Origin: a virus
Reading direction: 5' to 3' (one strand)
Virus record (IMG/VR): IMGVR_UViG_3300035670_011224
Location: 1 to 64,000 of that record
DNA length: 64,000 bases
How positions within the stretch are numbered: the stretch's first letter is position 1; each line of letters begins with the position of its first letter. Positions 47,957 through 59,335 of the stretch are shown here, piece after piece. The position numbers and the translations under genes are program-made. The notes under the pieces were generated by a model. That model was given only the letters and a program-made list of their open reading frames with translations. It did not search any database and had not been told where the DNA came from.

Positions 47957-49605
47957 GTGTTATTTTTTAGATGTGCGTATTGAATAAAGTCTTCTTCGAA
48001 TTTATGATTTGTTTTTCTTATATCTTCGGACCTATTATTGTTATCTATCATAACATTTATATAATCATATATATTATTAATATCATATGCGGATATTTGG
48101 GTTGGAGAATTATAGCTAAATCCATAATCAGCGTTTTGTAGCATATTCAAAAATTTAAATGAAGATAATAAATCTGCATTTCTTACATAATTATTACAAA
48201 GATTTGCTAATACGCTAAAATTATTTTTATTACCATCTGACTGGGTTTTATCGGCTTTATTTAAGATAGTTAACGGTACGTTCCAGTCTGCTCTATATTC
48301 CAGATTATCAAAATAGTTTTCCCATACTTTTGATATATCATCCCAATTATAATATTTTTCTGTTAGTTGTCTTATTTTTAATCTTTCTGTATTTCTAATC
48401 GGTATTGGTTTGGCCATTTGCTTGAGTATAATACCAATTAGATCTTTGTTATTTGGATATACACGAATTGCTTTTGTTTCTAACTCTTTGAAATAAGAAC
48501 TAGGATTAACTTTGAATGCTTGTAATTTTTCTATAATGTCAACCATTGCACTATAATCTACGGTAGCAATAGGTATCCCACACGCGCCTGCTTCAACTTG
48601 TGGCATACCAAAACCTTCACAAATAGCATATTGTACATAAAGATCGAATAGATTGTATATTTCACTTAATTGAGTATCTGAAACACCATTTGATACAGAT
48701 GGAAACTGACAGGTTTTATTTAAGCATTTTGAACACACTTTTAATGGGCCACTAAAAACACAAGCCTCAGTATTCTGACAAGTTTTGCATAGGTATGTAA
48801 ATAGGACATGATTGGATACTTGGTATTGGCTAAGTAATTCCGGTATATCCCAGCCCATGTCCGGATATGTGGTATGTAGATATAGGTAAATTTTTTGATT
48901 AGTCTTTTGTATTTCGGGCAAGGAGATTATCTGTTTAAGGCTATATAAAAGTTCTGGTATTAGTTTGCGTTTCTGATTTCTCATCACGGAACCAAACACA
49001 AAAGCTTCTTGTGGTATATTGAATTTTTGACGTAGTAGATTTTTATCTTTGATAGAAAAAATATCTAAATTTACACCTGGGCTGGTTGTTGCTATGTACT
49101 TGATTTTATTATTAGTTTGTTCTTTTAGAACTTTTGCCCCCCAATCACTATATGTAAAAATGGCATCTGTTGATAGAAATACGTCTACCCACTCTTCTTG
49201 TTGTGGAGCAGAATCTACTGTGGGCATAAGGATATGATGAAAATAAGATCTTAAAGGAGATAAGGTTTGGTAACCGCTCATCCAAAAATCTCTTACGTCA
49301 ACAACAACATCCGGCTTAAAGTCTAATAGAACTTTCTCAAATCTCCACCTTCCAAATTGATTATCTGTCCTAGACATGTATTCCTTATATCTAGGATCAT
49401 TATCCCTCACAGCATTTGCATAATAAATCCAGTCTATATTTTTATCTCTCGGATCATTGACCATACCATAGGAAGCAAATTCTGCAACAACGTATTTGTT
49501 AGTTTTATGCCATCTGGATAAAATCTCGTAAGCATATTTACCAAAACCAGAATTTATGAAGCTGGCTTCGGAGCACATCAATATTTTTAGTTTAGATTTT
49601 GCCAT
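47953..49605 (-). CDS. GT4 family glycosyltransferase with a Zn-ribbon insertion
   Basis: KILM...SGFG, RNQKRK, DLYVQY..CEGFGMPQVEAGACG, and CKTC...CSKC insertion. Confidence 0.88.
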   Translation of the reverse strand: MAKSKLKILMCSEASFINSGFGKYAYEILSRWHKTNKYVVAEFASYGMVNDPRDKNIDWIYYANAVRDNDPRYKEYMSRTDNQFGRWRFEKVLLDFKPDVVVDVRDFWMSGYQTLSPLRSYFHHILMPTVDSAPQQEEWVDVFLSTDAIFTYSDWGAKVLKEQTNNKIKYIATTSPGVNLDIFSIKDKNLLRQKFNIPQEAFVFGSVMRNQKRKLIPELLYSLKQIISLPEIQKTNQKIYLYLHTTYPDMGWDIPELLSQYQVSNHVLFTYLCKTCQNTEACVFSGPLKVCSKCLNKTCQFPSVSNGVSDTQLSEIYNLFDLYVQYAICEGFGMPQVEAGACGIPIATVDYSAMVDIIEKLQAFKVNPSSYFKELETKAIRVYPNNKDLIGIILKQMAKPIPIRNTERLKIRQLTEKYYNWDDISKVWENYFDNLEYRADWNVPLTILNKADKTQSDGNKNNFSVLANLCNNYVRNADLLSSFKFLNMLQNADYGFSYNSPTQISAYDINNIYDYINVMIDNNNRSEDIRKTNHKFEEDFIQYAHLKNNT

Positions 49606-49611
49606 TATATA

Positions 49612-49648
49612 ATAGAATAAGGGGGATGTTTCACCCCCAATATTCTAT
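49612..49648 (-). terminator. Intrinsic terminator-like hairpin after ssb
   Basis: Minus strand ATAGAATATTGGGGGTGAAACATCCCCCTTATTCTAT: GGGGG/CCCCC stem, extendable by ATAGAATA/TATTCTAT, with a U-rich tail. Confidence 0.7.
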
Positions 49649-49670
49649 ATTCATTCCTCTTTGAGTCTTG

Positions 49671-50039
49671 TCAGAAAGCAACCGATTCTGATTCTTCTGC
49701 CTTTGATCTACTAAGCTTAGTGATCTTCGAAAAGTTATTAACTCTAACTTTTAGACTACTATGCTTAACTCCATCTTTTTCCCATGTGTCATTTCTAAGA
49801 GATCCTTCTACCATAACCAAATCTCCCTTTTTAAGGGATTCGGCAATAGTTTCTGCTCCGCTGTCCCATGCTTCGCAGTTAATGAAAGATGTAATTCTGT
49901 CTTTTTCTCCATTAGACTTTACATAGTCTCTATTAACAGCAATAGTAAAGTTTACTACGCTAGTTTGTTTTCCATTTGGATTAACAACTCTTAGCTCAGG
50001 ATCTCGTGCAAGATTACCCTTCAACAATGTGATATTCAT
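49671..50039 (-). CDS. ssb: Single-stranded DNA-binding protein
   Basis: LKGNLARDPELR...F.IAVNR...FINCEAW...KGDLVMVEGSL. ATG at 50039 with AGGAG 8 nt upstream. Confidence 0.95.
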   Translation of the reverse strand: MNITLLKGNLARDPELRVVNPNGKQTSVVNFTIAVNRDYVKSNGEKDRITSFINCEAWDSGAETIAESLKKGDLVMVEGSLRNDTWEKDGVKHSSLKVRVNNFSKITKLSRSKAEESESVAF

Positions 50040-50080
50040 TTTCAAAACTCCTAAAAGTAAAAACGCTACAACTATATAAC

Positions 50081-50108
50081 ATTATACCAAGCGGCAGCGT
50101 TTTGTCAA
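50081..50108 (-). promoter_or_regulatory. Consensus sigma70-type promoter for ssb
   Basis: Minus strand TTGACA-16 nt-TATAAT with extended -10 TG. The -35 overlaps the stop codon of the dnaE C-terminal piece. Confidence 0.85.
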
Positions 50109-51718
50109 GATCTTGGTATAAAACATTTTTCTACTATAAAAGAGTCTTTTTTAGGACTCTTATTGCCTAGAAATATTAGTACATTTCCTTCGAATAGATA
50201 GTTTCGATATTTAGACAATTGATCAGGAAATAGGATAACGGAATCCAAGGATGCGTATTGATCCTCTATTGTGACAAAAGCCATTTCTGCACCAGCATTT
50301 TTCCCATTCTTTGTCTTAACAAAATTTATATTACTAATTTCACCAGCTAAAATAATATTTTTAACATTATTGGTATGTTTAAACATTTTGCAATCACAGT
50401 TGGTCATACTAATGTCGTATGAGTCTATTTTAAAACAGGTAATAGACGCCCCAAGCAACGCATTTTCTGTGTCAGATAACCATTCTATTTTATCGTTTAG
50501 TGAGTATGGTGGATTTTTATATAGTTTAATCAAATTTTGTATATTAGTTTTTCGTTTGATATTAATCTTACTATTAGTCAGTAGATTTTCTAAAACTTGT
50601 CCTAGATATTTTTGGTTTATATCTAAAAGATCTAATTCTCTAGATGTTAATTCTGATATTATGTCATATTCAAATAACATTTGTGTGCGTGACATATGAT
50701 AATAATCAAGGGCTCCGCATGATATTAGTGCCTTAGCGGCTGTAGAGTTTATTTTATTGAGCAATTTTACTAAGCATCCATACCATGATATAGAATTAAG
50801 ATCAATATTTTTGACTATTTCCATAATCTTATCATATACCGAATAACCAACACCTTTTATATCTGTTAAACCAAAATAAATTTTATCATCGTTTATAGTA
50901 AAGTGTTTATTAAGTTTTCTTAAATCTGGAACGCAAACAGTAACATCCATTTCTGTCGCGTTTCTAATTAATTCCTTGATCTCTTTTTGGGGATCCATCT
51001 TGTCTTTTGCGAACTTTAAATATGATGCAAAAAATACTTTGGCAAAGTGTGCTTTTGCATATGCTGATGAATATGCATTCATAGCATAACTTACAGCGTG
51101 GCTCTTGTTAAAGCTATATCTTTGACTTTTTTCTATCCAACCAAAAATTTCTTCGCTCTCGTCTTCTGAGACAATATTAAGTTTTTTAACACCATCTTTG
51201 AATTTAACTTTGATTTTTGCCATTTCTTCTGGTTTCTTTTTGCCTATGGCCTTACGAAGCATATCGGCTTCTTGAAGATCGAACCCGGCCACCGCCTGAG
51301 CGATTTGCATGGCCTGTTCTTGATAAATCATCTCGCCATAGGTGGATTTTAATGAAGGCTCAAGAGAAGGATGGAAGTAGTCTAATTCTTCTAGACCATT
51401 TTTTTTATCTATATAATGATCACTGATGCTTTTGCCTTCCCTATATGCCTCTAATGATCCTGGTCGCATAATACTAATCAATGCAGAAAGTTGCTCTATA
51501 TTTTGTGGTTTAAGTTTTTTGGACATGCTAGAGCCTAGTCTGGATTCTAATTGGAAAACGCCTTTTGTGTTTCCTTGTGCTATCATATCCCATGTTTTGG
51601 AACATTCTAGATTCAGATTTTCTAGTTTGCCATCGAAATCTATTCTAGGAATACCATCCTGGGTATAGTCCAATACCTTAAATTTACAACCACAATCAAA
51701 CGTATAGTGATGATTCAT
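50105..51718 (-). CDS. dnaE: DNA polymerase III alpha, C-terminal piece (fingers, HhH, OB)
   Basis: GVFQLES, MRPG, YQEQ.MQIA, LRKAIGKK, YSFNKSHA, GLTDIKGVG, and MAFVTIED. Confidence 0.93.
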   Translation of the reverse strand: MNHHYTFDCGCKFKVLDYTQDGIPRIDFDGKLENLNLECSKTWDMIAQGNTKGVFQLESRLGSSMSKKLKPQNIEQLSALISIMRPGSLEAYREGKSISDHYIDKKNGLEELDYFHPSLEPSLKSTYGEMIYQEQAMQIAQAVAGFDLQEADMLRKAIGKKKPEEMAKIKVKFKDGVKKLNIVSEDESEEIFGWIEKSQRYSFNKSHAVSYAMNAYSSAYAKAHFAKVFFASYLKFAKDKMDPQKEIKELIRNATEMDVTVCVPDLRKLNKHFTINDDKIYFGLTDIKGVGYSVYDKIMEIVKNIDLNSISWYGCLVKLLNKINSTAAKALISCGALDYYHMSRTQMLFEYDIISELTSRELDLLDINQKYLGQVLENLLTNSKINIKRKTNIQNLIKLYKNPPYSLNDKIEWLSDTENALLGASITCFKIDSYDISMTNCDCKMFKHTNNVKNIILAGEISNINFVKTKNGKNAGAEMAFVTIEDQYASLDSVILFPDQLSKYRNYLFEGNVLIFLGNKSPKKDSFIVEKCFIPRS

Positions 51719-51723
51719 AAATA

Positions 51724-52425
51724 TTATGCGGACGCTGTGGCGAACGCGTTTTTGAATTTAACCTTATTACCAAGATTTCTATGAAGTTTCATAAATCTAA
51801 TAAGAATATCAGCCGTGGCTCTTACATCATTTAGAGCATCATGAGATCCACTATTGCCAAGACCTAGGTATTCTCTAACATTATCTAATGTATAGTTTTT
51901 TAGTTCATTGTTTCCTTCAAACCAATAAAATATAACATTCATTAGATCTATAACGTCTCGTGGATAAAAAAGAGATGTTCTTCCCTCCTTATTGACATTA
52001 TTATATTTCGTACTTAGTCTTTCTATAATTCTAAGATCAAATCTATTTATATTGTATCCAGCAGCTATTGGTGCTGTAAAACAAGATTTTTTATCTGATC
52101 TTATATGATATTTCTCTAAATAAGATACGAACATTTTCCATCCATTATCCTGATTTTGATAAGATTTCCAGTCCTCTAATATTTTAGTTTTGTCGCATCC
52201 TCTAACCTTGGCATGGAAATCAAGAACATCACTATCATCATATATATAATCAGGTTTTTCATCCAATATGGATGGTTTTAGATTAATATTAAATTCTGAG
52301 TCTTTGATAATTTCTAATTTATATGGATCTATTATCAGAGAGGCAATTTGAACGGGGCTACAAAGGTCAGGATTAGCCCCGTCCGTTTCTAAATCAAATA
52401 CACAAATTTTTTGTAAATTAGCCAT
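51724..52425 (-). CDS. DEDDh 3'-5' exonuclease (DnaQ/epsilon-like)
   Basis: Exo I FDLETDG, Exo II GYNINRFD, Exo III HDALND. Confidence 0.9.
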   Translation of the reverse strand: MANLQKICVFDLETDGANPDLCSPVQIASLIIDPYKLEIIKDSEFNINLKPSILDEKPDYIYDDSDVLDFHAKVRGCDKTKILEDWKSYQNQDNGWKMFVSYLEKYHIRSDKKSCFTAPIAAGYNINRFDLRIIERLSTKYNNVNKEGRTSLFYPRDVIDLMNVIFYWFEGNNELKNYTLDNVREYLGLGNSGSHDALNDVRATADILIRFMKLHRNLGNKVKFKNAFATASA

Positions 52426-52600
52426 TTGTCTCCACTACTGTGTTTCCTGGGAAAAAAGTCCTTTGATTACTATCTGTTGCAACATGACAATTAACGCTTC
52501 TGCAACAGCTTACTCTAACTTCTTGGATCTTAGTATATTCTACATTATTAGCTTTAAAGTTTTCGCCCACAGCAACTTGGTCTAATGTTTTTGTTAACAT
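52418..52600 (-). CDS. Small hypothetical protein (60 aa, CC..C)
   Basis: Overlaps both neighbours, with TAATG coupling at 52600. Confidence 0.65.
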   Translation of the reverse strand: MLTKTLDQVAVGENFKANNVEYTKIQEVRVSCCRSVNCHVATDSNQRTFFPGNTVVETNG

Positions 52601-53484
52601 TATAGTTCTCCGTTTTTTAGGTATTCTGATACAGACATGATTTTGTCCAAATAAGCGATACCCAATATATCAAATTTAATTAAACCCAAACTCTCTAGAT
52701 CATTCATCTCCATGCCCGCTATCAGCTGATCATTTCTATTATCATAGACCATAGGACACAGAGATGCAAGATCTTCGGTACCTATTATTACACCAGCAGC
52801 ATGTTTGCTTTGATTAGATTTTGTTCCTTCTAGTCTTATGGCCTGTTCAAATCTTTTTGACAATGGACCAGCCAACGAACCATCTTCTGCTATGTAGCAC
52901 CATTCTTTAAGCTTGTCTGTGTTATTCTCTAAAGCCCATCTAATAATCGAGGCTTCTCCGGTATCTTCTTTCATCTCCTGAAGTTCGTCGGCTATTTTGG
53001 CTTCGTCAGGAATAAATTTGGTAATAGAATTCATTTCTTCGAAAGATATATTACCATATACTCTTAGCACATCTTTTAACGCCCCTCTACCTTTCATAGT
53101 ATTAAAAGTAATCATTTGTGATACTTTGCCATGTCCATATTTACTTTTTATATATTCTAATACTTGTTCTCGTTTATCTATTGGAATATCTATATCGATA
53201 TCTGGCATTTGTATTCTGGCTGGAATGCTTTGTATTGGGCGAGTATTATCAAGCTGATCGACAATACCATATATCCACATTATATAACTATTAATAGTGT
53301 TTTCGGATAAAATATTTTTATTTACTATTATATGATTATAGTATGATATATTTTCTGGAGCCGAAAGAACTATAGAGCATTCATGTTCAAGAAATCTATT
53401 ATTTTTTTCTTGTTCTAACCTTTCGATTATAGGCTGGCTTTTAATCTCATGTACTAGTCTAGTAAGTGTAGAATTTTTTTCCAT
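52600..53484 (-). CDS. dnaE: DNA polymerase III alpha, middle piece (catalytic palm/thumb)
   Basis: MPDIDID at residue 93, SKHAAGV, and IKFDILG, so all three catalytic Asp are here. It has a 92-aa N-terminal extension. Confidence 0.93.
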   Translation of the reverse strand: MEKNSTLTRLVHEIKSQPIIERLEQEKNNRFLEHECSIVLSAPENISYYNHIIVNKNILSENTINSYIMWIYGIVDQLDNTRPIQSIPARIQMPDIDIDIPIDKREQVLEYIKSKYGHGKVSQMITFNTMKGRGALKDVLRVYGNISFEEMNSITKFIPDEAKIADELQEMKEDTGEASIIRWALENNTDKLKEWCYIAEDGSLAGPLSKRFEQAIRLEGTKSNQSKHAAGVIIGTEDLASLCPMVYDNRNDQLIAGMEMNDLESLGLIKFDILGIAYLDKIMSVSEYLKNGEL

Positions 53485-54272
53485 TTGTAGTCTATATATA
53501 AATGATTGTTTAGTAAATATTTTGCTATAACTTTAATTTCACTCTTGTTTTGGTATATTAACTGATATAAGTCTTTATTTTTTATTTTTGTTGGTTTTTT
53601 ATATTTTACAGGCAAGGCTTTGGACACTGTTTCCAAATTTTCTGGAAGATATGAACATATACCTATGTTGTAACCAGTGTAGACTTTATTTTTATTGGTT
53701 TGTTTTTTTATACTAACCCATCCATCAGCATCCCAATATCCTCTTATAAAATCTGGCCATAATAATTGATCCGACGGTAATTTTAAAGTACTATACCATG
53801 TTTTTCTTGGTATAATACCATATTTTGATATATTATTTGCTAAAATATCGCTAGTAAATTGAAATGTACACCTATTATCGTAGTCTTTTACTATATTAGA
53901 GCCTATTAAAAATTTAGAAAATTTAATCAAATGTTTTTTTGATTCTGACCCCAAGCATAATTGTAGCTTATTACTATCACTAATATTTCCATCGCCAAAA
54001 ATAAAACCAAGCCAATAAGCTGATGCGGCATCTAATTTAGAAAAATCATTTAATAATTTTTTTTTACTATTTTTAGTAAATCTAGTTGATTTTGCTAAAC
54101 AACCACAACTTTTAACATGGTTAATCTTTATCATAGATAGTTTCTTATAACAGATATTGCCGCATTTACATTTACACTTAGCAATTGTTTCTCCTTTACT
54201 ATCCGGAACTAAAGTTATTATAGTAAGTAAATTATAACTCTTATTTTTATAGTCTTTTATTTTAGTTTTCAT
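53454..54272 (-). mobile_element. Free-standing LAGLIDADG homing endonuclease gene with an N-terminal Cys-rich (CKCKCG...SCGC) module
   Basis: AYWLGFIFGDG and FIRGYWDADG motifs. Likely ATG at 54272 with GGAGG upstream. No intein splicing blocks seen. Confidence 0.88.
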
Positions 54273-54276
54273 ATTG

Positions 54277-54336
54277 CCTCCGGAATTATACTGTTTATAC
54301 ACCATTCTTAAATGTTTGTATAGAAAATTCCGGAAA
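54277..54336 (-). promoter_or_regulatory. RNA hairpin sequestering the homing endonuclease RBS
   Basis: Minus strand TTTCCGGAATT...AATTCCGGAGG outer stem, plus inner TATACA/TGTATA and CATT/AATG stems. GGAGG lies in the 3' arm. Confidence 0.7.
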
Positions 54337-55593
54337 AGATATGTGTTCTTTTACATTCCTGCCATCGGAATAAAATCTTTCAAATAGTAATTCATGTTTA
54401 ATAGGATCTATATCTGTAATACCTATTAAATAAGAAACCAAGCATCCGGCTGCGCTTCCTCGTCCTGGTCCTGCTAACCAATTATTATTTTTAACATGTC
54501 TTAGTATGTCTTGAACAATTAGAAAATAACTACTAAGCCCAGCATTTTGCAAAACCTGTAGTTCATATTTTATTCTATCAACATAAATATCGTGTTGTGA
54601 TTTGTCAATATTCGGTATAATTCTATTTTTCCAACCTTTTCTACATAATTCTCTTAAATATTCATCCGGAGAGAATCCTTCGGGACATTCGAATTTAGGC
54701 AATTTAGGTGGCGATAGTATATCAAAATTTTCTATTAGACTATCCACAAACAAAGTGTTTTCTATCTCTTCGTCATTATGAAGAGTTTTCATTTCTTCTG
54801 GAGACAGAATGTAGTATTTATCGCTTTTAAAGAAACACTCCATAGGCACAGATTGATTATGAAGCATCTTAGTATTTATATCTGATAATGTTGTTTTAAG
54901 ATTATTACAGAGCAATATTCTTTGATCTATAGCATCGTCCTGTTCACAATAATGAGCATCCGGTGTGCATACCGCTTTTGTTTTACTTAATTCAGAAATT
55001 CTTCTTATTGTATCTGTCAAATATGTTTGTTGTTTTAAATATGCTTGATCAAATAGTTGTGTCTCTAGAAAAAAATTATCAGTGCCAAATATAGTTTTCA
55101 TATAGTCCACAAAAGATAATCCATTGTCTATAGCTTTGGATTCGTCGCATAATATCTTATCTGCTAATGTTGATCCCAAATGTCCACAAATACCTATAAT
55201 GTTACCATCCAGTATTTCTGCTAATTTAGCCAGGCTTAAACGCGGCTTATGATAAAAGTAATCGGGTCTGTTAGATTCGGAAACAATCTTTATTAAGGTT
55301 TTCCATCCTTGCAAATTTTTCGCCAATACCAAAAAATGTGATAATGAAGCATTTTCTTTTGTTTGTATACTCGGATCATCTTCACATATATATAATTCAC
55401 AACCAAGAATTGGTTTTATATTTTTATTTCGCATTTTCTGATAGAACTGTACAGAGCCGGCGATGTTACCATGATCGGTTAAGGCACAAGAATTAATGCC
55501 TAATTTAGAACATCTATTAGCTATTTGTTCTGGACGATTAAGACCATCCAAAAGACTAAAATGCGAATGACAATGAAGAACAGAATAGGTCAT
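54295..55593 (-). CDS. dnaE: DNA polymerase III alpha, N-terminal piece (PHP domain and start of palm)
   Basis: HCHSHFSLLDG, TDHG, GCE, DAHY, GPGRGSAAG, and LLFERF. Confidence 0.95.
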   Translation of the reverse strand: MTYSVLHCHSHFSLLDGLNRPEQIANRCSKLGINSCALTDHGNIAGSVQFYQKMRNKNIKPILGCELYICEDDPSIQTKENASLSHFLVLAKNLQGWKTLIKIVSESNRPDYFYHKPRLSLAKLAEILDGNIIGICGHLGSTLADKILCDESKAIDNGLSFVDYMKTIFGTDNFFLETQLFDQAYLKQQTYLTDTIRRISELSKTKAVCTPDAHYCEQDDAIDQRILLCNNLKTTLSDINTKMLHNQSVPMECFFKSDKYYILSPEEMKTLHNDEEIENTLFVDSLIENFDILSPPKLPKFECPEGFSPDEYLRELCRKGWKNRIIPNIDKSQHDIYVDRIKYELQVLQNAGLSSYFLIVQDILRHVKNNNWLAGPGRGSAAGCLVSYLIGITDIDPIKHELLFERFYSDGRNVKEHISFPEFSIQTFKNGV

Positions 55594-57578
55594 ACTGATC
55601 CTGGTGCTTTGTAAGATCCAAAAGAATGATTCGGGTGTTTGTACATACTCATTGTAGCATCGATCCCGTAAAGTTCAAGGTCGTGCTTGACTTGTTCGCA
55701 CTTTGTCATGACAGATCCTTTTTGACATATTTGTCCATCTCTATATTCCTCCAAAGGTTGTATGCTAGTATTTTCAAAAGTGGTTTTACCGAAATGGCAT
55801 AATTTATTACACATCCATGTTTTATTAAGCTTAGGACGTTTTGTTTTCTTAATAATATCAAATTTTTCTCTCAACATATTTTCTGTGTCTATGAGATCGC
55901 TATCATGAAATACCATAGAAAAAGGACCACCATCATTAATAAAGTAGATAGAAAAAATTACATTTTCAATATGCGGATATAATTTTTTAATAGCATAGTG
56001 ATAAATTTTAAGTTGTGGATCTTTTTCTAACTTTTCTTGGGTTTTTTCTTGACCGGTTGCCCAATCTAGTCTTCGTCCAGTATTATGTGTTGGAATATAA
56101 TTTTCTGTACACAGATAAGTATTGTCTGGACTGTCTACGGAAATGCATTGAGTTTTTTGTATAATCGATTCTTCTATTTTAGAAACTCGTCTAACCCTAG
56201 ATCTTCCAGATCCCCAATTTACATCCACAAGTTCTTTTTTCCTGTTCAATAGAAAAGGATTAATATCAATTGGACGAAACGAAATAGGATATATGATTAC
56301 GTTTTTTTTGTAATTTGTATCTCTTTTAATACACGCTTGATTCGGTCTTTGCCCAAGGGTTAAAAGTAGGTCTTTAACATCGTCGGATAGTTTTTTATTA
56401 CAAGAAGTAAAGATGGTTTGTTTTCTAATTGGATTTACATTTCCGTCTGTATCCATCAAACCCCTTAGTAAGTCTAGTCTTTGTTGAAAAGATGCTCTCA
56501 AATAAATTTTTGGTATATGTTTATTATTCAATAGGTTTAAAGATTTTAGTATTTTTGTCACATTTAGGATCGATACTGTCTTATTTTTTGATCTTTTATC
56601 ATTTTGAATTTTTCCTAGCTCATAACCTCTTGCTTGTATTTCTTCAAAAATTTCGATATCATTGCCACTAATCTCGCAGCCTCTATTTCTTCCGTCTCCT
56701 AACCAGACTCCTAATAGATAAGGATCTATTGGTAGGGATTGTTCATTACATTTTAATGGTTTTGTCACATTAATAGTATCGCCAATAGCTAGATCCTGTA
56801 TAGATACCGTTTCACCATTAGATAATTTCCATAAATGCTCATCGTCACAAATTACCGATGTTTTGTCATCAAAAGTTACTCTGAAACATTTTTTTGTTTT
56901 GACTTTTGATTTTCCAACAACGCGACATATATTACCGTATTGATCAAAAACATTACATCCCACATTTATATCTGCAATTGTTGTCCATCCGTCAAGAGTA
57001 GGTAATTTTGTATCTAATGGCAATCCTTTCCAATCTATGACCTCAATAGTATTATCATTGGCCAAAGTTATAAGATCTATAGTGCCTTTTAAACCCAAAT
57101 ATCCATCTAGTTTTTGATTATTGATATTATACTCGTATTTAGCCCATGGTTTTTCTATTACCAAATCAAAATGTTGTTCTGGTCTAAGAATTGTGCGATT
57201 TCTAGGATCAAACATACCACCATTAAATTCTATAGCCTTGTAAACCCAATTATAGCAGTCCTTATAATCTTTTAGAGTCCAAGTATGATGACTATTAGCG
57301 GTACTATAATGCTTGTATACTTTTTCTATTATGGTATTAAGACTATAGTCGTTTATATCTATAAGACCTAAGAATTCGTCGTCGTTTATATGAGATAATT
57401 TATCTTGCTGACCTTGTTTGATCATAGCAAGAATTTCTAAAACTTTATGGACTATTGTTCCTTTATCCGCCTTTTGTCCACTTGGACCCCTCCATCCTAG
57501 TACATATTCAAAAAAAAATTGTTGTTCACACATAGAATGGGCATTATAAGATGAACTACGGAAATAAGTTATAATCAT
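55590..57578 (-). CDS. PD-(D/E)XK (RecB/AddB/Cas4-like) exonuclease, intein-containing
   Basis: GTIVHKVLE, E..F, GTIDLI, IDWK|TG and QLKIY motifs. One N-terminal Cys plus a C-terminal Cys cluster suggest an Fe-S staple. Confidence 0.88.
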   Translation of the reverse strand: MIITYFRSSSYNAHSMCEQQFFFEYVLGWRGPSGQKADKGTIVHKVLEILAMIKQGQQDKLSHINDDEFLGLIDINDYSLNTIIEKVYKHYSTANSHHTWTLKDYKDCYNWVYKAIEFNGGMFDPRNRTILRPEQHFDLVIEKPWAKYEYNINNQKLDGYLGLKGTIDLITLANDNTIEVIDWKGLPLDTKLPTLDGWTTIADINVGCNVFDQYGNICRVVGKSKVKTKKCFRVTFDDKTSVICDDEHLWKLSNGETVSIQDLAIGDTINVTKPLKCNEQSLPIDPYLLGVWLGDGRNRGCEISGNDIEIFEEIQARGYELGKIQNDKRSKNKTVSILNVTKILKSLNLLNNKHIPKIYLRASFQQRLDLLRGLMDTDGNVNPIRKQTIFTSCNKKLSDDVKDLLLTLGQRPNQACIKRDTNYKKNVIIYPISFRPIDINPFLLNRKKELVDVNWGSGRSRVRRVSKIEESIIQKTQCISVDSPDNTYLCTENYIPTHNTGRRLDWATGQEKTQEKLEKDPQLKIYHYAIKKLYPHIENVIFSIYFINDGGPFSMVFHDSDLIDTENMLREKFDIIKKTKRPKLNKTWMCNKLCHFGKTTFENTSIQPLEEYRDGQICQKGSVMTKCEQVKHDLELYGIDATMSMYKHPNHSFGSYKAPGSV
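56082..57026 (-). mobile_element. Class-3-type intein (315 aa) with LAGLIDADG endonuclease, first residue Gly
   Basis: Block A GLPLDTKLPTLDGW, block B CDDEHLW, LAGLIDADG motifs LLGVWLGDG and LLRGLMDTDG, block F TQCISVD, block G IPTHN/T. Confidence 0.92.
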
Positions 57579-57587
57579 GATATCCTA

Positions 57588-58181
57588 TTATTGGGGTATT
57601 ACATTAAAATGTAACATAAGTTTTTTAAGTTTATCGTATTGCTCTCTAACTGTCATATGTTCATTATTAATGATAGCATTAAAATTATTCCAATCATATC
57701 TACAAGCATCCAATATTGATTCACTAATATGTTCTGATTTGTGTGGATTTCTATTTAGTCGAAATACTATTCCTCCATTATTTTTTATAGCTTCTACTTC
57801 ATTAGGAAATCTACAATCAGAAACTATAACAACTTGAAGTTTACTCTTTTTAATTTTATTGATAAGAGCATTTACCCAAACATTATTATTTAATTTTCTA
57901 AATAAGTCAGTACCTATTAATTGCATTAAATCTCTAGCTGTTAGTTGCTTATCTTCCCAATAGGCATCAACTAGTTCATTCTTGTTATGATCTTCGCCAT
58001 AACACTGAGCATATGATAATCCAAACATATTCATGCATATGTCTTCTTTTAATGGGTCTGCAAAGTTATATATTTCAACATCAGAATATCCATTGGATAA
58101 TAATAATCCTTTTAAAAATTCTGAACAAATAGTTTTGCCAGACTGCTTACGGCCAGAAAATGCTATTATTTTAGTATTCAT
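57588..58181 (-). CDS. Deoxynucleoside monophosphate kinase
   Basis: FSGRKQSGKT P-loop, FADPLK, R..MQ.IGT, and DCRFPNE. Confidence 0.88.
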   Translation of the reverse strand: MNTKIIAFSGRKQSGKTICSEFLKGLLLSNGYSDVEIYNFADPLKEDICMNMFGLSYAQCYGEDHNKNELVDAYWEDKQLTARDLMQLIGTDLFRKLNNNVWVNALINKIKKSKLQVVIVSDCRFPNEVEAIKNNGGIVFRLNRNPHKSEHISESILDACRYDWNNFNAIINNEHMTVREQYDKLKKLMLHFNVIPQ

Positions 58182-59335
58182 TAGTATTTATCTTTTAATT
58201 GTGGTAAAATAATCTCTTTTACTTCAGCTACTGACATATCAGCAACATCACTGTGGTCAATATCAATATAGAAAACATTATATGTCTTATGACATTTATC
58301 ATAGATTTTTTGAGCAGCTCTTTTGCCAGCGTCATCATTGTCCATAAGTATATATATGCTCATTGCTCCAGAAATATCCAATAACAATTTTTGTTTTTCT
58401 TGTAATACAGAGCCGAATAGGGCTACGCTATTATGAATTCCGGCCTCTTCTAGTCTCCAAACATTTCCTGGGCTTTCAACCAAAATAATATTTTTATTCT
58501 GTTGTATATAGTCTTTTGCATACCATAGATTATATAAATACTCTTGTGTTTTAAATCCCTTATTATGTTTCCACTTAGAATATTGCCATGAATAATCTGA
58601 ATTCGGACAATCTTTTGTTAAATTATGATAACTTTTACATTTAGAGCATTGAGTAAAAATGCTTCTGCCAGAACAACCTACCATATGTTCATGAGTGTCG
58701 TCGTATACTGGCACAACAGCCCTATCGCCCATTTCTTTTTCGGAACTTAAACATTCACCAACATCATATTTGATAAGTATCTCAGGAGAAAATCCTCTAC
58801 TAATAAAATAATCTGATGGAATTTTTAAATTCTTTACTATTTTATCTCTTGTGATTTTAGGAGTATCGTCAACAGATCTAATATCTGTTTGTATATTATT
58901 AACAATATTTACAAAATTATTTTTTTCTACTTCTTTTTTACTAACTTTTATTTGACTAGGATTCTTTTTAGTAAAATTAATAGCATATTCTACAGCATCA
59001 TTAAAAGAAACGGTTGGATCGCCCGGTCCTGTCCAACCATTTTGTTTAGACAAACAACCTCTTATAAATCCTATAATAGATCCTTTGAATGTTTCTTCGC
59101 ATTGATGCGTTCTGCATTTCCAGTTGCCTCTATATGAGTCTCCTTTGTAATATAAATTACAAGCAGAATTATTATCTCCGCCATGAATTGGACATCTCAT
59201 GGCTATCATGCGATCAAAAGTTTTGTATTCTCCAACATTTAAATTATCTAGTAAATTATCTATATCTTCACATAAATAATCAGATAGTATCTTAAGTTGT
59301 TGTTGATTATACGAACGGGATTTCTTGATCGTCAT
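58181..59335 (-). CDS. dnaG: DNA primase (CHC2 Zn finger plus TOPRIM)
   Basis: CPIH...WKCRTHQC, LVESPGNV, and MDNDDAG. The start is uncertain (59335-59350). Confidence 0.88.
   Translation of the reverse strand: MTIKKSRSYNQQQLKILSDYLCEDIDNLLDNLNVGEYKTFDRMIAMRCPIHGGDNNSACNLYYKGDSYRGNWKCRTHQCEETFKGSIIGFIRGCLSKQNGWTGPGDPTVSFNDAVEYAINFTKKNPSQIKVSKKEVEKNNFVNIVNNIQTDIRSVDDTPKITRDKIVKNLKIPSDYFISRGFSPEILIKYDVGECLSSEKEMGDRAVVPVYDDTHEHMVGCSGRSIFTQCSKCKSYHNLTKDCPNSDYSWQYSKWKHNKGFKTQEYLYNLWYAKDYIQQNKNIILVESPGNVWRLEEAGIHNSVALFGSVLQEKQKLLLDISGAMSIYILMDNDDAGKRAAQKIYDKCHKTYNVFYIDIDHSDVADMSVAEVKEIILPQLKDKY

Follow-up and report, generated by a model that had tools for sequence, protein, structure and literature searches.

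In this study, we describe an endonuclease cassette that interrupts dnaE, the gene of a C-family replicative polymerase, in a phage genome. The DNA analysed, here called the window, is a stretch of 64,000 nucleotides (nt), positions 1 to 64,000 of the IMG/VR virus record IMGVR_UViG_3300035670_011224. Open reading frame (ORF) calls and Pfam matches reveal the polymerase as three pieces on the minus strand, the first two of which are separated by a free-standing gene for a predicted LAGLIDADG homing endonuclease. The insertion point lies directly before the catalytic strand (RIS|MPDIDID). The N-terminal piece (N-piece) ends in a new tail, and the middle piece begins with a 92-codon extension (EXT). 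Our favoured reading, to which we assign a probability of roughly 0.62, is that tail and EXT serve the endonuclease cassette as a splicing-free adaptor and were derived from the target's own palm segment by degenerate duplication. The original prediction, made from the letters of this DNA, had offered two alternatives, a duplicated palm segment that diverged into a dimer interface or an adaptor travelling with the endonuclease. The evidence favours combining the two.

The features of the split are the following (aa, amino acids).

54295..55593, minus strand: dnaE N-piece, 432 aa, with a PHP domain and the start of the palm, which contains the GPGRGSAAG nucleotide-binding loop
54337..54672, minus strand: palm segment A, N-piece residues ~308-419, the genuine copy apparently echoed by EXT
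53209..54354, minus strand: inserted cassette, 1146 nt where unsplit alleles have 18 nt (TKDRIS codons)
54295..54354, minus strand: N-piece tail, residues 414-432 and stop, consisting of VKEHIS (diverged host codons), FPEFSI (echo of MPDIDI) and QTFKNGV
53454..54305, minus strand: LAGLIDADG endonuclease ORF, 283 codons, two motifs, free-standing
53209..53484, minus strand: EXT, 92 codons that extend the middle piece at its N-terminus, with an ATG lying 31 nt inside the endonuclease ORF
53269..53292, minus strand: NSYIMWIY, the best-conserved motif of EXT (residues 65-72), its NSYIMW core near-invariant in all lineages
52600..53484, minus strand: whole middle piece, 294 aa, matching positions 96-260 of the DNA_pol3_alpha profile at residues 88-275
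52600..53208, minus strand: middle-piece core, with the catalytic strand MPDIDIDI (53185-53208), the thumb and KHAAG...KFDILG with the third Asp

The cassette and its uninterrupted relatives

Pfam matches the N-piece to PHP (E=2.4e-34) and to positions 1-99 of the DNA_pol3_alpha profile (residues 311-413), and phmmer matches it to Pol III alpha chains of the Protein Data Bank (PDB). In the phmmer alignment segment A corresponds to residues ~287-398 of E. coli alpha, the same chain range that is matched by the structural model of EXT described below. The break leaves the GPGRGSAAG loop on the N-piece and places the MPDIDID strand and the KFDILG Asp on the middle piece, which thus carries all three catalytic Asp residues. 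Coordinates and ORFs of the split (N-piece 55593..54295, LAGLIDADG ORF 54305..53454, middle piece 53484..52600) agree with those of the original prediction.

Relatives were taken as the best 80 loci for the middle piece and the best 80 for a second query, 160 loci in total, and locus contexts were read from IMG/VR and at least five metagenome loci. The family is large and consists mostly of freshwater viral contigs. N-piece and middle piece form a single ORF in 65 of the 80 best middle-piece loci and in 74 of the 80 for the second query (139/160). This unsplit ORF reads ...ERFYNAGRNTKDRISMPDIDIDIP... across the insertion point, and tail and EXT are absent from all 139 unsplit loci. One of them, L009, is 96.7% identical to the window at the DNA level over 6 kb upstream, and the middle-piece core is 99.5% identical in protein sequence to those of unsplit L009 and L010. 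By blastn against unsplit L009, L010 and L011, homology ends at window position 54355 (N-piece codon 413) and restarts at 53208 (Met93 of the middle piece); therefore 1146 nt (53209-54354) replace 18 nt. From these boundaries the cassette has three parts, namely a new end of the N-piece, the endonuclease gene and the 92 new codons of EXT. The comparisons establish both the boundaries of the cassette and its presence/absence polymorphism among near-identical phages. The phages collection holds no close relative of the window, the best nucleotide match being 105 nt in a Chryseobacterium phage, and no isolated phage with EXT is found among the matches listed (41 of 255 records).

The ORF between the two pieces matches Pfam LAGLIDADG_3 (E=3.1e-8, 34.2 bits against a cut-off of 22.5) and PHROG 4645, endonuclease (E=5.7e-28). 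Its LAGLIDADG motifs read GFIFGDGNI and GYWDADGWV, and it is predicted to be a double-motif LAGLIDADG homing endonuclease. The true start is likely the second ATG (54272), giving 272 aa, because GGAGG stands four nt ahead of it; the N-piece stop codon (54295-54297) then precedes the endonuclease start with no overlap. At its other end the endonuclease gene overlaps EXT (window 53454-53484), by 31 nt in the window as well as in L008 and by 20 nt in L090. The EXT ATG at 53484 lacks a preceding Shine-Dalgarno sequence, which together with the overlap suggests that initiation of EXT is coupled or independent of a Shine-Dalgarno sequence.

Tail and EXT in split, decayed and fused alleles

EXT is open, free of stop codons and conserved at the amino acid level in 40 distinct sequences, and its motifs NSYIMW and YY.HI hardly vary even in lineages with a core identity of just 45-54%. 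Compared with L008, the proportions of nonsynonymous (pN) and synonymous (pS) differences are 0.366 and 0.639 in EXT, 0.286 and 0.522 in the tail, and 0.148 and 0.670 in the core. By these codon comparisons tail and EXT are shown to be translated and under purifying selection. The original prediction had itself raised the case that translation begins at Met93 (53208) and EXT is never made. Such a start, or a self-splicing intron in this stretch, could draw on the missing Shine-Dalgarno sequence before the 53484 ATG and on database forms of 201-203 aa that start with MPDID. We considered these forms as splits lacking EXT and rejected them as probable gene-call artefacts, since one of them, P0093 (203 aa), falls on an unsplit ORF of L171. 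Translation from Met93 is very unlikely and is contradicted by the conservation of EXT (n=40), by a pN of 0.37 against a pS of 0.64, and by the presence of EXT within fused ORFs. An Rfam scan of 49500-58500 gave no RNA family or intron even at E <= 1, and an intron is disfavoured because the flanks are conserved as protein. That EXT is not made, by either route, is hardly credible.

A hidden Markov model (HMM) of EXT alone, run against 1.84 billion protein representatives, found 35 clusters (50% identity) at E <= 1e-3, all in DnaE context. EXT heads a DnaE middle or middle-plus-C piece in 33 of them, a few being short fragments, and in some lineages the protein so headed is a fused middle-plus-C form of 533-1171 aa. 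The other two clusters (P0132 and P0155) carry N-piece, tail, EXT and middle piece in one ORF, of 689 and 678 aa, respectively; these fused forms come from several independent assemblies, and the fused form was confirmed on DNA in L256. Tail and EXT occur together in every EXT-bearing lineage in which both ends are readable.

The endonuclease gene itself is found in all states. It is intact in the clade of the window, in L008 (55% identity), in L253 (61%) and in L090/L255 (32%). L089 has kept a remnant aligning to residues 241-278 of the window endonuclease. In L254 the endonuclease is gone and dnaE is still split, with 37 nt between the N-piece stop and the EXT start; the endonuclease is likewise absent from the fused P0132 and P0155. 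This is the cycle of invasion, decay and loss of a homing endonuclease gene, with tail and EXT retained as scars. That they outlast the endonuclease argues for a need of the split (or once split) enzyme, and not of the endonuclease, for these scars.

We built a tree from the 195-residue core, in which divergent lineages were sampled only via EXT and the deep part is therefore biased. EXT-bearing alleles of the freshwater clade stand in at least a dozen places of this tree, each beside unsplit alleles. Identities of EXT and core disagree: P0001 and P0005 share 93% in the core and 45% in EXT, P0001 and P0003 share 75% in EXT and 78% in the core, and P0007 and P0012 share 100% in EXT and 86% in the core. 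Hence the cassette or its flanks have been exchanged between alleles. The discordant histories of cassette and core show, as far as alignments and tree can tell, horizontal spread with tail and EXT as passengers, as expected of homing. Comparison among alleles gives good support to the proposal of an adaptor travelling with the endonuclease, through the co-occurrence of tail and EXT, their absence from the unsplit loci, the discordant phylogenies and the persistence of both elements beyond the endonuclease. The expectation that EXT is confined to endonuclease-split alleles holds for the most part, as EXT is found mainly in alleles split at this site, but the two re-fused genes keep both tail and EXT, and L254 has lost its endonuclease.

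The two fused genes permit the reverse history and count to that extent against our reading: tail plus EXT may have been first an in-frame insertion domain of some DnaE lineage, as in P0132 and P0155, inside which the endonuclease landed later, whereupon the unit spread. The fused state is known from two divergent genes in several independent assemblies, and each of the two clusters in the core tree with EXT-bearing relatives that are split. Homologous endonucleases, however, occupy the same tail|EXT junction in lineages as distant as the window and L090, whose endonucleases are 32% identical, and the endonuclease is decaying in L089 and lost in L254. Given these three observations, fusion after loss is the simpler reading. 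The order of fused and split states cannot be polarised, since the deep tree was sampled only through EXT matches. On balance we regard the insertion-domain-first history as unlikely.

Origin of the tail and EXT

The N-piece of the window ends GRNVKEHISFPEFSIQTFKNGV and stop, as against ...GRNTKDRISMPDIDIDIP in one frame in unsplit alleles. Through IS the end is plainly host sequence. It then continues as ISFPEFSI versus ISMPDIDI, and these next 6-8 residues keep the pattern of the catalytic strand, with F for M, P, E for D, F for I, S for D and I; the first catalytic Asp has thus become Glu and the second Ser. Both tblastn and phmmer extend the alignment of the N-piece to residue 425, across the position of MPDIDI. 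At the DNA level tail and host strand are identical at ~9/18 positions. Because just 6-8 residues are involved, the tail echo alone is statistically weak. A tail motif h-S-F-x-E-h, followed a few residues on by an aromatic residue, recurs in L088, L089, L090, L253, L254, P0132 and P0155, whose N-pieces are as little as 34-36% identical to that of the window, and six highly divergent alleles that carry the tail all share F420 and E422. Judged from these alignments the tail echo is confirmed as real but short, and the original reading of the N-piece end as a decayed ISMPDI with the catalytic Asp lost is borne out.

For EXT, a predicted structure provides the main evidence. EXT was modelled alone by AlphaFold2 from an alignment of EXT-bearing split pieces only, with no unsplit DnaE included. 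The model has five helices and a mean predicted local distance difference test score (pLDDT) of 74.9. We compared it exhaustively with 48,161 PDB representatives by VIA-align; about 7 C-family polymerases are contained in this library. Ranks 1-5 of the 48,161 are all C-family polymerases, with a root-mean-square deviation (rmsd) of 3.2-4.0 Å over 77-84 residues and Z values of 4.1-5.7, which are modest; the tool warns that Z < 8 can mean a common arrangement. The five chains are the following.

PolC 9qpc_A: Z 5.7, rmsd 3.2 Å, 77 residues
M. tuberculosis DnaE1 5lew_A: Z 5.0, chain 316-417
M. tuberculosis 7pu7_A: Z 4.4
E. coli alpha 5fku_A: Z 4.3, chain 287-397
E. coli alpha 5m1s_A: Z 4.1, chain 287-399

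The Taq chain 2hpi_A follows at rank 9, and the best unrelated chain reaches Z 3.3. All five matched ranges end at the start of the catalytic strand, which fits the prediction for a collinear duplicate. Three weaker observations from the sequences agree among themselves. Aligned by BLASTP with two unrelated phage DnaEs of full length (PhiR41_1 and a Moorella phage), the middle piece matches collinearly through EXT into their palm segment. The posterior alignment of hhalign takes the same register over 74 columns, with the nucleotide-binding (GS) loop deleted, and is non-significant. The spacing between ERLEQE and SYIMWIYGI in EXT equals that between DRIKYE and CLVSYLIGI in the N-piece (45 residues).

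Besides the modest Z values, a number of results weigh against a palm origin of EXT. Neither EXT alone nor residues 1-87 of the middle piece have a Pfam match at E <= 1 or a PHROG match, and BLASTP of EXT against the N-piece gives E >= 5. Local alignment with unsplit palm segments yields shuffle z values of -0.6 to 3.7, and the best register is not the one first proposed. With hhalign, the EXT profile (40 distinct sequences) meets the palm-segment profile at a probability of 0.3% (P 0.21), none of the local, global and MAC (maximum accuracy) modes being significant; permutation of the profile columns gives z 1.27, a value attained by 9% of permutations. Against the 1.84 billion representatives the EXT-only HMM matched no canonical palm segment. 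Foldseek found nothing for the EXT model in the PDB at E <= 0.001. Moreover, the fold match is not fully independent of sequence, because AlphaFold may follow a faint likeness to DnaE structures of its training set. In a low-confidence model of the whole middle piece (mean pLDDT 60, residues 56-104 below 50), EXT does not take the position of segment A; as its PDB matches begin only at residue 85-100, this model is uninformative on where EXT lies. An ESM Atlas look-up of EXT returned no usable match, and a complex prediction for the N-piece with EXT alone, which returned 'no answer' at a score of 0.00, bears neither way.

At the sequence level, then, the EXT echo does not rise above chance and fails every test. 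The original prediction had set profile similarity to DnaE, to be sought by HHalign, as the measure for this echo, and by that measure (P 0.21, permutation z 1.27) the claim fails. Its broader statement that both sides of the split echo each other stands for the tail by sequence, and for EXT by predicted fold alone. The duplicated palm segment it proposed is likewise favoured by the fold (ranks 1-5 of 48,161) and by the collinear, non-significant alignments, with all tests of sequence significance against it. Support for EXT as a diverged duplicate of the palm segment (N-piece residues ~308-419) that lost the nucleotide-binding loop is good but not conclusive, because the Z values are modest, the model is a predicted one and AlphaFold was possibly guided.

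Tail and EXT might instead be foreign DNA that the endonuclease brought along from an earlier location and that was later selected as docking peptides, the palm likeness being due to chance or to convergence on the same binding surface. The uniformly negative sequence tests of EXT against the palm and the lack of a Foldseek match speak for such an origin, which is also favoured by Crona et al. for the NrdA tails (PMC3045599). Against it stand the five best of 48,161 chains, which are C-family polymerases at exactly the collinear segment, and the tail, in which the h-S-h-x-acid-h pattern typical of the catalytic strand is preserved in register; in addition, the EXT HMM matches no possible source outside DnaE. 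We consider a foreign origin possible, with about one chance in four, and distinctly less probable than duplication of the target.

Proposed mechanism and known systems

According to the favoured reading, a homing-endonuclease cassette would have been copied into phage dnaE just before the catalytic beta-strand, so that the active site is split over two polypeptides. The endonuclease would cut the uninterrupted ...RISMPDIDID... site, and repair from a split allele would copy the entire cassette in. Tail and EXT would together represent a degenerate tandem copy of a dnaE stretch of ~115 codons that spans the insertion point, in the order A - b' - [endonuclease] - A' - B, with A standing for the genuine palm segment and B for the genuine catalytic strand. 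The copy b' (the tail) would have lost the Asp residues and A' (EXT) the GS loop. The GS loop exists on A alone and the Asp residues on B alone, so that catalysis requires the two to combine in trans. By analogy to the mobE-derived tails of Aeh1 NrdA, tail and EXT may let the fragments fold and dock non-covalently into an active polymerase. A more elaborate version, in which the dead copies EXT and tail pair into a second, silent pseudo-palm and thereby lock the two polypeptides in a domain-swap-like double handshake, is attractive but doubtful. In that version the cassette would be a portable split-tolerance module built from a tandem duplicate of its target, and a general recipe for invading the most conserved part of an essential gene in the absence of an intron or intein.

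In principle the two pieces could also be reunited by a degenerate split intein of atypical layout, its short N-part lying in the tail and its long C-part in EXT. The sizes of these parts (13 and 92 residues) resemble those of atypical split inteins from phage metagenomes, and Ser before MPD is common among EXT-bearing alleles. Yet there is no Pfam intein or HINT match, no His-Asn before the junction and no Cys/Ser/Thr nucleophile at +1. Ahead of MPD the window has Gln, and other alleles have Glu, Ala or Tyr; the junctions read RIQ|M, RIS|M, KAS|L and RFE|Y, and EXT is predicted to be all-helical. The contrast is provided by sister alleles (L025:3536-6615, L026, L032, L178, L179, L183-L185 and L199), in which a true split intein fractures DnaE at GPGRG|SAAG, a site 40 residues further upstream. 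Its N-part starts with CFVPDT, its 36-aa C-part ends GVHN|S (...GVHN|SAAG), and a different free-standing ORF of 269 aa lies between the halves. An intein at the window split is thus very improbable. The window split is free of intein hallmarks and would have to work non-covalently.

The third dnaE piece and the second break belong to the same locus.

50105..51718, minus strand: fingers/HhH/OB piece, the third dnaE piece (Pfam)

The second break (window 50105-52600, between middle and C piece) holds a 60-aa ORF and a DnaQ-like exonuclease, a layout kept in essentially all loci of middle-piece relatives that reach far enough. In distant lineages middle and C piece are one protein (P0121, 816 aa), in some cases with intein insertions in the fingers (P0129, P0149). 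In some relatives (L023:6609-7340, L025:6609-7334, L068:2099-2810 and L071:6545-7256) the middle piece and the 60-aa ORF are set apart by an additional ~720 nt, which may represent another mobile gene at the second break. In a distant phage, L089:4854-6830, several extra genes lie between the middle piece and the exonuclease, among them a 163-aa ORF resembling uracil-DNA glycosylase; this locus has no C-piece. The neighbouring gene for a PD-(D/E)XK-like nuclease (57578..55590) contains an intein at window 56084-57027, which is also a presence/absence polymorphism, as L018 aligns across it with the intein missing.

Homing endonucleases normally need an intron or an intein to be harmless in essential genes. 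To our knowledge, NrdA of phage Aeh1 is the sole biochemically studied case of a third route, that of insertion-derived tails. In Aeh1, nrdA is split by mobE, and activity depends on unique tails acquired with the insertion (Crona et al. 2011, PMC3045599); the authors proposed such tails as a possible general way to neutralise fragmentation, though one that would be difficult to detect (PMC3045599). The window resembles the Aeh1 nrdA-a/mobE/nrdA-b arrangement (Friedrich 2007; PMC3045599) in that a free-standing endonuclease splits an essential, replication-related gene at the active site. The endonuclease gene overlaps the downstream fragment in both systems, neither an intron nor an intein is involved, and uninterrupted alleles exist here in close relatives. 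Both systems also have unique C- and N-terminal extensions at the break, which here too are absent from uninterrupted homologues. In contrast, the Aeh1 endonuclease is of the HNH type and that of the window of the LAGLIDADG type. The Aeh1 tails are short, oppositely charged peptides known from one phage, whereas one 'tail' of the window is a conserved 92-residue domain predicted to be folded. Unlike in Aeh1, EXT appears to copy the palm segment of its own target, and its adaptor role is proposed by analogy. The unit is moreover present in at least 35 clusters (50% identity), in which all stages of endonuclease decay are represented.

According to the discussion in PMC3045599, the T4 gp39/mobA/gp60 topoisomerase is likewise an endonuclease-associated split of an essential enzyme with tail-like extensions. 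That discussion reports no duplicated host segment, and gp60 also has translational bypass. The cyanobacterial Ssp and Npu DnaE proteins are, as here, made as separate polypeptides, but their split site is different, the halves lie at distant loci with no endonuclease in between, and a split intein joins them. Dassa et al. (2009, PMC2677866) described fractured genes, three DnaE loci among them, in which split inteins accompany a free-standing endonuclease. These genes share with the window the gene family and the layout of fragment, endonuclease gene and fragment, but rejoin by trans-splicing (Cys1 ... HN|Ser), whereas the window split lacks such hallmarks. The GRG|SAAG fractures of the sister alleles may correspond to these DnaE loci.

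The original prediction had spoken of a splicing-free alternative to introns and inteins. This is consistent with the finding of no RNA or protein splicing element, but as a concept it is not new, having been described for Aeh1 NrdA (PMC3045599). New here are DnaE as the target, an adaptor of this size and depth of conservation, the apparent derivation of that adaptor from the fold of the target, and the breadth of a family that contains all stages of the endonuclease. The case is far larger and older than that of Aeh1 and extends over dozens of freshwater and marine phage lineages, from intact through relic to re-fused stages, with sister alleles that solve the same problem by a split intein. 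It offers a testable system for the splitting and reassembly of an active site and a possible natural template for engineered split polymerases.

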